A stretch of DNA of 51,845 nucleotides from an uncultured Candidatus Saccharibacteria bacterium (GTDB lineage Bacteria > Patescibacteriota > Minisyncoccia > Sungbacterales > HO2-52-23), in contig CAYHZE010000001.1 in the NCBI GenBank assembly GCA_964361015.1, positions 1-51,845 on the forward strand, given 5' to 3'. Below, piece after piece: positions 6,980 through 11,081 of the stretch; position 1 is the first letter of the stretch, and each line of letters opens with the position of its first letter. The notes under the pieces are model-generated. The model did no database searches. It was not told where the DNA came from and saw only the letters and a list, made by a program, of their open reading frames with translations. The translations under genes were made by a program, and so were the position numbers.

Positions 6980-8017
6980 ATGCATCATAAGAATATGCAA
7001 GATTCTTATCCATCATCCATACATTCTTCTCGACGGCCAAAAAAGGCTCTTGTGTTGGGAGCAGGAGGGTTTATTGGGCATCATTTGGTCAGACGATTAA
7101 AAGACGAGGGGTATCAAGTGACAGGCGTAGATGTCAAAGAACCCGAATTTTCGTCCACCGTGGCCGATGATTTTATCATTGGTGATTTGCGTGATTATCA
7201 TATTTGCAATACCGTCATCACTCCGGACACAGATGAAATCTATCAACTTGCCGCAGATATGGGCGGGGCAGGTTATATTTTTACCGGCGAACATGATGCT
7301 GACGTGATGCACAATTCCGCCACCATTAATCTTAATGTGGCTCGCGTTGCCGTCAAAAAAGGAGTTCGTAATCTTTTTTATTCCTCATCTGCCTGCGTAT
7401 ATCCAAAATATAATCAAGAAGATTCTCGCAATCCAGTATGTTCGGAAGAAAGCGCGTATCCTGCCGCGCCTGATAGCGAATACGGCTGGGAAAAACTTTT
7501 CAGCGAGCGCATGTACCTTGCTTTCAACCGTAATTACGAATTCCACGCGCGCATTGCCCGTTTTCATAATATCTTTGGGCCAGAGGGGACGTGGCAGGGA
7601 GGACGGGAAAAAGCGCCGGCGGCGATATGCCGCAAAGTTGCCGAAGCTCATGACGGAGACGAATTGGAAATCTGGGGAGACGGCAAACAAACCCGTTCCT
7701 TCCTCTATGTGGATGAATGTTTGGAAGGAGTGCGCAGACTCATGCAGTCGGATGCCACCGGACCGCTCAATATCGGTTCCGAAGAGATGGTGAGTGTTAA
7801 TGAGCTTGTTGATATGGTTTGTAGAATTGCGGGAAAAAATCTGGTAAAAACATATAATTCAAATAAACCCCAGGGTGTGCGGGGCCGCAATTCAGATAAT
7901 AGATTGATTTACGAAAAACTCAACTGGAAGCCAAGTTCATCTCTCGAACAAGGCCTTGAGAAAACCTATCATTGGATTGAACAGCAAGTGAAGGCCAAAG
8001 ATCGCAATGAGAAATAA
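6980..8017 (+). CDS. NDP-sugar epimerase closely resembling GDP-mannose 3,5-epimerase
   Basis: GAGGFIGHHL Rossmann motif; the block RFHNIFGPEGTWQGGREKAPAAICRK ... IWGDGKQTRSF is characteristic of the GME family. Confidence 0.75.
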   Translation: MHHKNMQDSYPSSIHSSRRPKKALVLGAGGFIGHHLVRRLKDEGYQVTGVDVKEPEFSSTVADDFIIGDLRDYHICNTVITPDTDEIYQLAADMGGAGYIFTGEHDADVMHNSATINLNVARVAVKKGVRNLFYSSSACVYPKYNQEDSRNPVCSEESAYPAAPDSEYGWEKLFSERMYLAFNRNYEFHARIARFHNIFGPEGTWQGGREKAPAAICRKVAEAHDGDELEIWGDGKQTRSFLYVDECLEGVRRLMQSDATGPLNIGSEEMVSVNELVDMVCRIAGKNLVKTYNSNKPQGVRGRNSDNRLIYEKLNWKPSSSLEQGLEKTYHWIEQQVKAKDRNEK

Positions 8018-8042
8018 AAAAACCAAAGGTGGGGTTGCATAC

Positions 8043-8094
8043 GTTCACATACATATTGGACTCTATCACCGAGTCCAATATGTGATGGACTGAT
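8043..8094 (+). repeat. Left copy of an approximately 52-bp direct repeat flanking the AbiE islet
   Basis: gttcacatacatattggactctatcaccgagtccaatatgtgatggactgat; contains a perfect 13-bp stem hairpin (8051..8083). Confidence 0.75.
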
Positions 8095-8203
8095 ATAGCC
8101 TGAAAATATCGTAATATCGCCGGATGGGTCGAGGACGGCACCATTGAAAATTGACAAGAATATCGATATTTATTATCCTGTACATATAAGTACAGGTTTA
8201 TTT

Positions 8204-8776
8204 ATGCCTAAAAACGTAAAAATTCAAAATTTACACCGTTTTGCCGAGCTTGCGCGTCTTGGCGAGGTTGTTTTTCATACTGATGATTTGGCGAATTTGT
8301 GGCGCATTACGAACAAAAACACTCTCTATACCACGATCAAACGTTATGTAGAGCAGGGGCTTCTTTTTCGTATTCATAAAGGATTTTACGCCATCAAGCG
8401 ACCAAAAGACATTGATCCGATACTCCTTGGCGTGAAGGCATTGCATGGTTATGCCTATGTGAGCACCGAGACCATTTTACGAGGGCAGGGGATTATTCTG
8501 CAAGAGCTTCCGGCTACTACGCTTGTGAGTACTGAGACAAAGCGTTTTATGGTAGCAGGGAATGCCTTCTATTCGCGCAAACTCCCTGACACCTTTTTGT
8601 ATAACGCACAAGGTATTACCACCGATACCACCGGAGTACGGAGGGCAACGACAGAGCGTGCGGTTGCTGACCTACTCTACTTCAATAAGAGCGCGTATTT
8701 TGATATGTCCAAGGGTATTGATTGGAAAAAGGTACAGAGCATCCAAAAAGATATAGGGTATCCATTAACCAAATAA
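8204..8776 (+). CDS. abiEi: AbiEi-like antitoxin / transcriptional regulator (type IV TA)
   Basis: The N-terminal pattern VVFHTDDLANLW...TLYTTIKRYVEQGLLFRIHKGFYAI is typical of the AbiEi_4 wHTH domain. The gene lies immediately upstream of a DUF1814/AbiEii gene. The ORF track starts at TTG 8144; ATG 8204 is preferred. Confidence 0.7.
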   Translation: MPKNVKIQNLHRFAELARLGEVVFHTDDLANLWRITNKNTLYTTIKRYVEQGLLFRIHKGFYAIKRPKDIDPILLGVKALHGYAYVSTETILRGQGIILQELPATTLVSTETKRFMVAGNAFYSRKLPDTFLYNAQGITTDTTGVRRATTERAVADLLYFNKSAYFDMSKGIDWKKVQSIQKDIGYPLTK

Positions 8777-8780
8777 GACT

Positions 8781-9536
8781 ATGGCTGACATTATTTTACC
8801 CAAACCAAAAGATGCAGTGCATAAAGCATGGCTGTACCGTGTGCTCTCCGGCATCTATGATGATGCGACGCTTGCGCACGTTCTGTATTTCAAAGGCGGG
8901 ACGTGTGCCGCAATGCTCGGCTATCTTGACCGTTTTTCCGTTGACCTTGACTTTGATCTTGTGGGGGATCGTACGGTACTTTCTCATACACGAACCCGCC
9001 TTGAGGCAGTATTTCGTGATCTCGGACTTACGATACACGACCAAAGTAAAGTTGTGCCGCAGTACTTCCTGAAATATGACGCACCAGAGGGGGAACGCAA
9101 CACCATGAAAATTGACGTTTCCATATCGCCACCTCAAGCAAACATGTACGAGTCAAAACGCTTCCAAGAGATTGACCGCATCATTATGTGTCAAACAATT
9201 GAGACCATGATGGCAAATAAACTGGTCGCACTTATTGACCGATACGAGCATAGTGAGGCGATTGCAGGCCGCGACCTTTATGACATCCATCACTTTTTTA
9301 TGAAAGGGTATCGGTATAACGAGGAGGTCATACGCGAGCGTACAGGAAAAAATACGAAGCAGTTTTTAAATGACCTTATTATTTTTATCGAGAACCGCAT
9401 CACCGAGGAGATTATCAATCAAGACATCAATACACTTCTGCCTTACGAGCAGTTTTCCCGTATTCGTAAACTTCTCAAACAAGAGACGCTGATGTTTTTG
9501 CGTGATGAGCAGAAGCGGATAGAGAAAAGGAAATAA
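8781..9536 (+). CDS. abiEii: AbiEii/AbiGii-family nucleotidyltransferase toxin (DUF1814)
   Basis: FKGGTCAAMLGYLDRFSVDLDFD and GRDLYDIHHF motifs typical of the family; 4 nt after abiEi. Confidence 0.8.
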   Translation: MADIILPKPKDAVHKAWLYRVLSGIYDDATLAHVLYFKGGTCAAMLGYLDRFSVDLDFDLVGDRTVLSHTRTRLEAVFRDLGLTIHDQSKVVPQYFLKYDAPEGERNTMKIDVSISPPQANMYESKRFQEIDRIIMCQTIETMMANKLVALIDRYEHSEAIAGRDLYDIHHFFMKGYRYNEEVIRERTGKNTKQFLNDLIIFIENRITEEIINQDINTLLPYEQFSRIRKLLKQETLMFLRDEQKRIEKRK

Positions 9537-9551
9537 ACGTTATATTTAGCC

Positions 9552-9782
9552 ATGGAAGGCGAGCTATTGAAAAATGAATTTGCCCGAAAATATTCGAATA
9601 TTGCGAGTTGGGTGGATGGTGGCACGATTGAGATTGGCAGAGCAGAATGGGGCCACGCCTTTATCCGCGTGTACGATGAGGGCGGCACCGTGTGGGAAGG
9701 GAAGCGGAGCTACGGGACCATAGACGAAGCGTTACAGGATGCAGAGCGGGCGATAGGGGAATGGATGAAGAAAAATTTATAA
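9552..9782 (+). CDS. Hypothetical small protein (76 aa)
   Basis: ORF only; no recognisable motif; co-oriented, 15 nt after abiEii, inside the repeat-flanked islet. Confidence 0.45.
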   Translation: MEGELLKNEFARKYSNIASWVDGGTIEIGRAEWGHAFIRVYDEGGTVWEGKRSYGTIDEALQDAERAIGEWMKKNL

Positions 9783-9929
9783 AGAAACTATGCGAGAAAA
9801 ACTAATCAGAGAATGCGAAATAATACAAGAAAACTGCACATAATCAATAGGATATAAAAGTTTTAATAACTCACCTTAAACGTCGGGCTGTCCTCCGGCC
9901 GATACGCGCAGGTATTTTTCTATGCACAA

Positions 9930-9981
9930 GTTCACCTACATCTTAGACTCCATGGCCTGGTCCAATATGTGGTGGACTCAT
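9930..9981 (+). repeat. Right (degenerate) copy of the approximately 52-bp direct repeat flanking the AbiE islet
   Basis: gttcacctacatcttagactccatggcctggtccaatatgtggtggactcat; roughly 80 percent identical to the left copy by eye, with the hairpin disrupted. Confidence 0.7.
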
Positions 9982-10126
9982 GCACTGTCTTGATCAGGCA
10001 GTCCATTTTAGTTTATGATAATTATATGAGGATAGGTCTCATGAAGCATTCTCCAGGCAGGAGTATAGACCGCTCACAGAACAAAAAGGTCGAAACATTA
10101 ATCAAGTTAACAATACATAAAAAATC

Positions 10127-10852
10127 ATGACAAAAAAATTATTCATTACCTTTCTAATGGTATCTTGGCTGGCTGTTGGATCAATGGGCGTATCAGCACA
10201 AGCCATGACCGAAGTACAGCCTGTTGTTGCTCCCGCACCCCTTCTTCCTCTCATATCTTCTACTGATACCTCGACAATTGCCGAAGTAGACCTTCAACCG
10301 GGAACAAAAAGTCCCCATGTAAGGAAAATTCAGGAAACGCTTAAAGCCATGGGATACCTTCCTGCGGATCTTGAAACCACTGAATATCTTGGACCAAAAA
10401 CAAAAGACGCAATTATGAACTTTCAAAGGGCCCAAGGCATTTCTCCTACAGGATTTTTTGGACAAGCAACACGAGCCGCTTTAAGGAAAAACTTTCGAGG
10501 AAGCGGAGAAGTGATAGATAGAAATGTTGATATTGTTTGCATGAAAACGGAAGTAGAAAAAAGAGAGAATGCGCTTTTATCAGCCTATGATACGCATGCC
10601 GGCAAACTAAAAATAGCCCGCGAAACAAGAAAAACCGATTTCTTGGCCGCATGGTCCATCCAGGACCCCAAAGCAAGGCATACAGCCCTTAAAACAGCCT
10701 GGGAAAAATATCGCCAAAGTGTAAAAACGGCCGCAAATGAATGGAACATAAGCAGAAAAACAACATGGACCCAATTTGCTCAACAAGCAAAATCCTGCAA
10801 AGCCACAGCGGCCGAGACGCAAGACTTAGAAAAAGTTGAAGTGGCGGAATAA
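10127..10852 (+). CDS. Secreted protein with a peptidoglycan-binding (PG_binding_1) domain
   Basis: Signal peptide MTKKLFITFLMVSWLAVGSMGVSAQA; HVRKIQETLKAMGYLP...GPKTKDAIMNFQRAQGISPTG matches the PGBD pattern. Confidence 0.75.
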   Translation: MTKKLFITFLMVSWLAVGSMGVSAQAMTEVQPVVAPAPLLPLISSTDTSTIAEVDLQPGTKSPHVRKIQETLKAMGYLPADLETTEYLGPKTKDAIMNFQRAQGISPTGFFGQATRAALRKNFRGSGEVIDRNVDIVCMKTEVEKRENALLSAYDTHAGKLKIARETRKTDFLAAWSIQDPKARHTALKTAWEKYRQSVKTAANEWNISRKTTWTQFAQQAKSCKATAAETQDLEKVEVAE

Positions 10853-10912: not shown

Positions 10913-10946
10913 ATAATAAAATCCAGTGACTACTGGATTTTATTAT
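10913..10946 (+). terminator. Hairpin/terminator after the PG-binding protein gene
   Basis: ataataaaatccagt-gact-actggattttattat, a perfect 15-bp stem. Confidence 0.55.
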
Positions 10947-11081
10947 AGACTCCATGAGGTGAACGTTTCAAATTTGGTCTTGTAAAGTTTTATCATTCAA
11001 TATATAATGACTTAACGATTTGTTCCTGCTATTATTTTTTTTCAAAAACCAACCGTTTCTTAGACATTTTTTGATTATCCT

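Follow-up and report, generated by a model that had tools for sequence, protein, structure and literature searches.

How a small islet of genes bounded by two similar, hairpin-forming direct repeats came to lie between an epimerase gene and a PG-binding protein gene, and whether its genes form one functional system, are the questions raised by contig CAYHZE010000001.1 of an uncultured Candidatus Saccharibacteria bacterium (GTDB lineage Sungbacterales). The stretch analysed, hereafter the window, is 51,845 nucleotides long, and the islet in it carries an AbiEi/AbiEii toxin–antitoxin pair followed by a gene for a 76-aa protein (Table 1). Positions 8036-9985 probably represent what decay has left of a plasmid-like integrative mobilizable element (IME) of Parcubacteria, in one or two copies, with stumps of insertion sequences (IS) at both edges. 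A previous reading made from the letters of the window (the sequence-only reading) had instead described a small insertion that duplicated its target, or a recombination between two hairpin sites, and had regarded the third gene as a possible accessory of the AbiE pair.

Table 1. Features of the islet and its right-hand border (positions in the window)
Feature	Position	Strand	Basis or remark
Left IS stump	8036..8097	+	62-bp fusion of the left and right terminal inverted repeats of a presumed IS481-like element
Fragment of a second 76-aa gene	8098..8147	+	About codons 11-27, with an in-frame stop; abuts the left IS stump
Promoter-like site and palindrome	8151..8196	+	TTGACA, 17 nt, TATCCT; 7-6-7 palindrome; promoter scan 10/12
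abiEi, predicted antitoxin and transcriptional repressor, 190 aa	8204..8776	+	PADLOC AbiEi 5.5e-23
abiEii, predicted DUF1814 nucleotidyltransferase toxin, 251 aa	8781..9536	+	PF08843 85.1 bits
76-aa gene, uncharacterised domain family	9552..9782	+	15 nt past abiEii; 19 close clusters
Tyrosine integrase remnant	9863..9904	-	Last 13 codons and stop; 12/13 residues as in the L015 integrase C-terminus
Right IS stump	9923..9985	+	Inverted-repeat fusion with the junction as in the left stump; other IS variant
Promoter-like site of the PG-binding protein gene	9990..10019	+	Promoter scan 9/12; few bases past the right stump, at the right islet edge

Probable remnants of a mobilizable element and its intact relatives

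The genome of the organism (G000; 1.14 Mb in 146 contigs, among them C8, C15, C20, C34, C36, C45 and C108) was searched in full. The three co-oriented genes described earlier are present in the islet, but the statement that only these three lie between the repeats missed two further pieces. The first, the fragment of a second 76-aa gene, forms a direct repeat with 9575-9631 inside the intact gene (72% identity). It is 81-83% identical to the corresponding genes of loci L015 and L016 and 72-74% identical to the intact copy 1.5 kb away, a difference that weakly suggests a separate origin of the fragment rather than a local duplication. A tblastn search of its own genome gave 48% over residues 5-29, with stops. 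An alternative genetic code as the reason for the stops was rejected, since they align with three different residues. The second piece, the integrase tail, shows 95% DNA identity over 38 nt to L015:6925-6962 and 89% to C36:975-1012; it keeps the convergent position and orientation found in L015 and ends 18 nt before the right IS stump. Both pseudogene pieces support an origin of the islet from a mobile element.

Intact relatives of such an element are modules of about 9 kb, which comprise a relaxase, a coupling protein, a tyrosine integrase and toxin–antitoxin cargo. On the Candidatus Sungbacteria contig of L015 and L068, chromosomal genes and a repeat array are followed by ParA, an unknown gene, Phage_rep_O, Replic_Relax, another unknown gene, a TrwB/TraG coupling protein, NYN, the 76-aa gene, an 87-aa gene, ParE and a convergent tyrosine integrase, and the 87-aa gene, similar to an 88-aa open reading frame (ORF) of C36, was read as ParD. 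Other loci show parts of this arrangement: L016 has Replic_Relax, the coupling protein, an AbiEi/AbiEii pair, NYN, the 76-aa gene, Hypoth_Ymh and DUF3800; L017 has the 76-aa gene, a ParD-like gene and ParE; L018 has NYN, the 76-aa gene and an unknown gene; and genome G019, of the same family as the window, has the 76-aa gene, AbiEi and AbiEii. About eleven direct repeats at a spacing of 62-64 bp make up the array at L068:2639-3340, which directly precedes ParA and RepO. Its resemblance to plasmid iterons or a partition site suggests that the element is an integrated plasmid. No attachment (att) repeats were found in L068, where the search turned up this iteron-like array but neither flanking direct repeats nor a tRNA.

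The genome also holds a paralogue of the 76-aa gene, 76% identical, across the overlapping ends of C34:1-420 (minus strand) and C36:1-1231, with the assembly break inside the gene. A ParD-like gene, ParE and an 80-aa C-terminal integrase ORF (89% over 85 aa to the L015 integrase, tblastn) follow it, and the locus is read as a second remnant of this element type.

On these gene contexts, the 76-aa gene is a putative backbone gene of a plasmid-like IME, located just before a variable cargo slot, and, judged by its neighbours, it is not an AbiE accessory. A three-gene AbiE variant, in which the 76-aa protein would be a co-transcribed accessory (second antitoxin, regulator or sensor), might be considered from the 15 nt between abiEii and the 76-aa gene, with no predicted terminator between them, and from the homologues that adjoin an AbiE pair in G019 and lie one gene from a pair in L016. 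The position of the gene varies, however, from upstream of AbiE in G019 to downstream in the window, with NYN between in L016, and the AbiE pairs of G019 and L016 are only 26-33% identical to the window pair, whereas the small proteins are 65-74% identical. In three other loci the small gene is accompanied by ParDE instead, and ParDE is as common a neighbour as AbiE, while all four contexts examined of the closest AbiEii homologues (75-80% identity) lack a 76-aa homologue. Moreover, the AbiEii subfamily counts 3449 clusters against 19 close clusters of the small protein, and AbiE is missing from the neighbourhood of the distant 76-aa homologues of cyanobacteria, Acidobacteria and Firmicutes. 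The divergence of the AbiE pairs, the varying side, the equal frequency of ParDE and the absence from the closest cassettes together indicate that the gene is not tied to AbiE, and the accessory role proposed earlier is very unlikely.

The edge repeats as collapsed insertion sequences

The direct repeats, described before as 52 bp long at about 80% identity, are real and slightly longer: a repeat search of the window placed them at 8036-8094 and 9923-9981, in one orientation, over 59 nt at 80% identity. Whole-genome BLAST gave the pair E = 5.9e-9, and its 19-nt core has exactly two occurrences in the window, where 0.01 would be expected by chance. Both copies fold from the first to the last base, which agrees with terminal inverted repeats, and the hairpin of the right copy (-22.1 kcal/mol, z -2.83) is weaker than that of the left (-27.9 kcal/mol, z -5.05), as its description as degraded had implied. 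The left copy begins 18 nt after the epimerase stop and had been taken for the terminal hairpin of that gene, a role that is unsupported: no T-run follows the hairpin, and the terminator scan made no call there.

Parts of the repeat are also present elsewhere in the genome, at C8, C108, C15 and C45, and at C8, C45 and C108 the C-terminal coding end of a transposase precedes its right half. C8:16284-16728 is a 445-bp internally deleted IS copy with both ends present, while full-length copies, located via the C-terminal transposase peptide, were found in two genomes of the same family, G023 (L035, 1087 bp) and G029 (L034, 1096 bp). The transposases of the full copies, 349-352 aa long, match rve_3 with 43.8-45.1 bits (cutoff 26.5) as well as rve and HTH_32, and we take the element to be IS481-like. 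Its left end is formed by an inverted repeat of about 28 nt, a 7-nt loop and a short back-fold terminating in GAGTCCAA, after which the transposase ATG follows; its right end starts with AAGTCCAA and runs on into the right inverted repeat.

When everything between the two GTCCAA motifs is removed in silico from the full-length copies L035 and L034, the virtual junction of left and right end is a 62-mer with 87-89% identity to 8036-8097, while 9923-9985 best matches (83%) the virtual junction made from the C8:16284-16728 copy. The two stumps are 76% identical to each other globally and 80% locally. As read from these alignments, both are IS from which the whole interior was apparently deleted between two GTCCAA microhomologies, and they derive from different variants of one IS. 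At 62-63 bp their coding capacity is nil, and they are remnants rather than functional IS. They look like in-place deletions at microhomology and not like an amplified family of miniature inverted-repeat transposable elements (MITEs); the latter was rejected on the ground that only two fused copies exist in the genome, both at this locus, with no target duplication seen. Fused forms were absent elsewhere in a pattern scan of 401 class genomes, the matches in G012 and G025 being ordinary IS left ends on the opposite strand. A stretch at 10946-10964 is probably not an IS-derived piece either: from about 10958 onward it belongs to a conserved flank common with the G051 locus (19 nt, 95%), and the rest is an exact 11-mer, of a length that chance can explain when a 62-nt query is compared with 52 kb.

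The view that a small element duplicated a 52-bp target containing the epimerase terminator, or that two pre-existing hairpin sites recombined, draws on the direct orientation of the repeats and on the position of the left one 18 nt past the epimerase stop. Against it, the repeat sequence is the terminal inverted-repeat pair of an IS with known transposase-bearing copies, partial copies stand at unrelated loci, the left copy has neither a T-run nor a terminator call, and a target duplication of 52-62 bp would not be expected to be 20% diverged with its copies matching different IS variants. A repeat dispersed at many terminators had been named as the finding that would speak against the insertion; the repeat is indeed dispersed in the genome, which tells against that reading, although its copies are not at terminators. 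We give hardly any weight to target duplication or hairpin-site recombination, while what stands of the earlier reading is that the islet DNA is foreign and derived from a mobile element.

A composite transposon is a second way to account for the stumps, in which two IS copies moved AbiE and the 76-aa gene into the gap between the epimerase and PG-binding genes and both later collapsed. The cargo is bracketed by two same-orientation remnants of one IS family, and the fused form was seen in the window only, among the 401 class genomes scanned. The outer flanks differ, however, with no matching target duplication, transposase is absent from both IS copies, and the structure does not have the form of this class; the stumps come from different IS variants with only 76-80% identity. 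In addition, gene truncation at either inner edge (the 76-aa fragment on the left, the integrase tail on the right) fits deletions after insertion better than a clean capture, and a promoter-like site follows closely on the right stump, as it does on most other right ends read, which suggests an independent insertion. A composite transposon is therefore improbable, and the remnant of an IME is preferred.

Several other observations concern the IS itself. At most right ends read (window 9986-10019; C15, C45 and C108; L034 and L035), a TTGAC-like -35 box follows 4-8 nt on, with a -10-like hexamer roughly 17 nt past it and unrelated spacer sequences, while the C8 copy and the left window stump have no promoter-like flank. 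The IS may have a preference for insertion sites immediately before promoters, or it may help to form hybrid promoters, and the lack of such a flank at the left stump is consistent with an adjacent deletion there. At C15:7960-8721, a tRNA-Ala is followed by a 175-aa NYN gene with 43-44% identity to the NYN upstream of the 76-aa gene in L016 and L018, and a solitary right inverted repeat of the IS comes after it, at the spot expected for the 76-aa gene. As well, C20:9826-9921 matches the transposase C-terminus within an open frame of 516 aa, where an IS end may be fused to a host gene or may supply its end.

The AbiE cassette

AbiE is a type IV toxin–antitoxin system, in which the toxin is neutralised without toxin–antitoxin interaction, and which confers phage resistance and plasmid stabilisation. 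On its domain matches and motifs, the pair in the window is a genuine and ordinary, predicted AbiEi/AbiEii cassette. The searches with hidden Markov models bear out the pair recognised earlier: AbiEii exceeds the PF08843 cutoff of 22.5 bits severalfold and matches PADLOC AbiEii at 2.2e-29, while AbiEi is matched by its PADLOC model over residues 22-180, over its full length but below the cutoff by NCBIfam TAA_AbiEi (6.5e-14, 52 bits against 150), and below the cutoff by Pfam AbiEi_4 (21.5 bits against 25). All four catalytic motifs of AbiEii are intact, with I/II at 38-59 (R51, D55, D57), III as KLVALIDR at 147-154 and IV as RDLYD at 164-168, where the motif definitions (I/II hG[G/S]...DhD with Arg; III KLxAaxxR-like; IV +DxxD) follow PMC3985639 and all four motifs were reported to be needed for toxicity (Dy et al., PMC3985639).

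The two genes are separated by 4 nt, and four related cassettes have the identical gene pairing and the conserved promoter. The 7-6-7 palindrome at 8177-8196 overlaps the -10 region; within the stretch examined it is complete in L057, and only its first arm is present in the other three cassettes. It is a candidate AbiEi operator by analogy with AbiEi of Streptococcus agalactiae, which has been reported to autoregulate at inverted repeats (PMC3985639). The abiEi start at 8204 is backed by the L057 orthologue. In three of the related cassettes, an abiEi ATG lies six bases past the -10 box, which suggests a leaderless transcript there; in the window (8186-8188) and L057 ATA stands in its place, and abiEi begins about 18 nt further downstream, at 8204 in the window.

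At the DNA level, the cassette is 71-76% identical over about 1.36 kb to cassettes in four unrelated contexts, and this homology spans the -35 box (8150) to near the abiEii stop, limits that mark it as a discrete promoter-to-stop module between the 76-aa fragment and the intact 76-aa gene. The AbiEii subfamily is very large in Parcubacteria, with its clusters counted at E <= 1e-20 and more than 100 of them at 62% identity or above. In the four contexts of its closest homologues, the pair stands alone among unrelated neighbours.

The 76-aa protein family

The 76-aa ORF is, by its conservation, evidently a real gene, as had been left to be checked: most of its close clusters lie at 59-83% identity, two lie at 49-52%, and a profile search extends the family to 627 clusters at 50% identity, with distant members in cyanobacteria, Acidobacteria, Firmicutes and others. 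No curated family covers the protein or its distant homologues in Pfam, NCBIfam, PADLOC or PHROGs. The AlphaFold model (pLDDT 83) has the topology alpha-alpha-beta-beta-beta-alpha with a long last helix, and Foldseek against the PDB returned no significant structural neighbours, the best being double-stranded RNA (dsRNA)-binding domains with E of at least 1 and TM 0.43-0.49. The only match of a PDB profile search, to a designer repeat, was rejected as spurious. A number of the 627 family members are larger proteins in which the domain occupies one end and the partner region mostly has no Pfam match; the fusions found, to a SWIM zinc finger (one), to DUF6398 (one) and a probable read-through with a thiamine pyrophosphate (TPP) enzyme, are uninformative for function.

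A more far-reaching proposal is made tentatively and is rather doubtful, namely that this undescribed family is a core gene of an undescribed family of plasmid-like IMEs in Parcubacteria, placed directly before an exchangeable toxin–antitoxin or defence slot, where the protein, together with the upstream NYN nuclease, might serve the element as a regulator that binds RNA or as an immunity factor.

Flanking genes

Homology to the orthologous PG-binding gene region of G051 begins at about 10085. Homologues of the flanking genes (G012 67%, G051 68%, metagenome contigs 53-62%) never show the epimerase and PG-binding genes adjacent to each other; in G051 the upstream neighbours are tRNA-Thr and tRNA-Tyr. 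In the window (about 10077-10100), L069, L071 and G051, a AAAGGTCGAAA motif is conserved 25-45 nt ahead of the PG-binding start; it is kept in all four homologous loci, while the remaining upstream sequence is unrelated. An Rfam scan of 7800-10300 matched neither this motif nor any other part of the stretch to a known RNA family.

Proposed history of the locus

The identity of each part and its relatives is established here, while the history of events is inferred. Four things survive in the islet: the 76-aa fragment, a complete AbiE cassette from promoter to stop, the intact 76-aa gene and the last integrase codons. One or two copies of the element would once have been present between the epimerase and PG-binding genes, IS copies would have inserted, and IS-adjacent or IS-to-IS deletions would have taken out the genes for transfer together with almost the entire integrase. 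The IS copies would then have collapsed at microhomology, while the AbiE pair would have persisted, presumably because loss of an addiction module is counter-selected. AbiE has been reported to be able to stabilise DNA carrying it, which its survival in the islet fits (PMC3985639). By analogy, AbiEi would repress the operon and neutralise the toxin, while the AbiEii nucleotidyltransferase would arrest growth, and the outcome would be stabilisation of the element and possibly abortive phage defence.

Several points weigh against this account. An orthologous locus with a single copy of the repeat and no islet, which the earlier proposal had called for, was not found with epimerase and PG-binding queries in 60 relatives, nor with the PG-binding query in a metagenome collection, which leaves insertion at this position a supposition. 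Neither IS stump has a recognisable target-site duplication around it, so that both the sequence of events and the part of the IS in the deletions are conjectural. The case for an element origin is made by one small gene, the 13-codon tail and the paralogous locus, and the argument that the 76-aa fragment came from another element copy turns on a few matches in some 50 nt. Among the genes of 8036-9985 there is no relaxase and no coupling protein, no NYN gene or att site is left in the window, and the GC content of the islet is not distinctive. With 13 integrase codons left, the region is a remnant only and not a functional IME.

Comparison with known systems and implications

The closest known systems are AbiE of Lactococcus lactis and S. 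agalactiae (Dy et al. 2014, PMC3985639) and the related MenAT of Mycobacterium tuberculosis (PMC7450476). As in AbiE, the cassette is a bicistronic abiEi-abiEii unit on mobile DNA, with a DUF1814 toxin bearing motifs I-IV, a two-domain AbiEi-type antitoxin and a promoter followed by a palindrome. Unlike known AbiE, the genes in the window are 4 nt apart rather than overlapping, the spacing of motifs I and II is one residue shorter, and AbiEi falls under the Pfam and NCBIfam cutoffs; moreover, the host belongs to Parcubacteria of the candidate phyla radiation (CPR).

The full IS copies resemble the IS481 family in their length of about 1.1 kb, a single rve-type DDE transposase, an N-terminal helix-turn-helix (HTH) and inverted repeats starting with TG, while the window stumps, consisting of two inverted repeats only, resemble internally deleted, MITE-like IS481 derivatives. 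They differ from such derivatives in that no target-site duplication was recognised and only two fused copies exist, both at this locus. The modules of the relatives carry a relaxase, a coupling protein and an integrase, as do IMEs (PMC5704250) and the relaxase and coupling-protein loci of Patescibacteria (PMC12102498), and relaxases have been reported to be rare in Parcubacteria (PMC12102498). Unlike IMEs, the window holds a remnant without transfer or integration functions, and the intact relatives also have ParA, RepO and an iteron-like array, in which they resemble integrated plasmids. Small proteins with a dsRNA-binding-like fold, such as HicA toxins, are comparable with the 76-aa protein in the predicted order of helix, three strands and helix; this is a resemblance of fold only, with no sequence match to HicA and no significant hits, and is a lead rather than a classification.

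The locus thus combines three known things, an AbiE cassette, IS481-like remnants and the remnant of an IME, with one uncharacterised but widespread small gene, and the islet is an ordinary kind of genomic wreckage. It illustrates that short, hairpin-bearing direct repeats around a gene islet can be collapsed IS rather than scars of an insertion, and that toxin–antitoxin modules can outlive the mobile elements that carried them, here in a very small CPR genome. Two by-products are of modest value: the indications that Parcubacteria have a family of plasmid-like elements that are mobilizable and bear an integrase, and a widespread small protein domain that lies outside all curated libraries.

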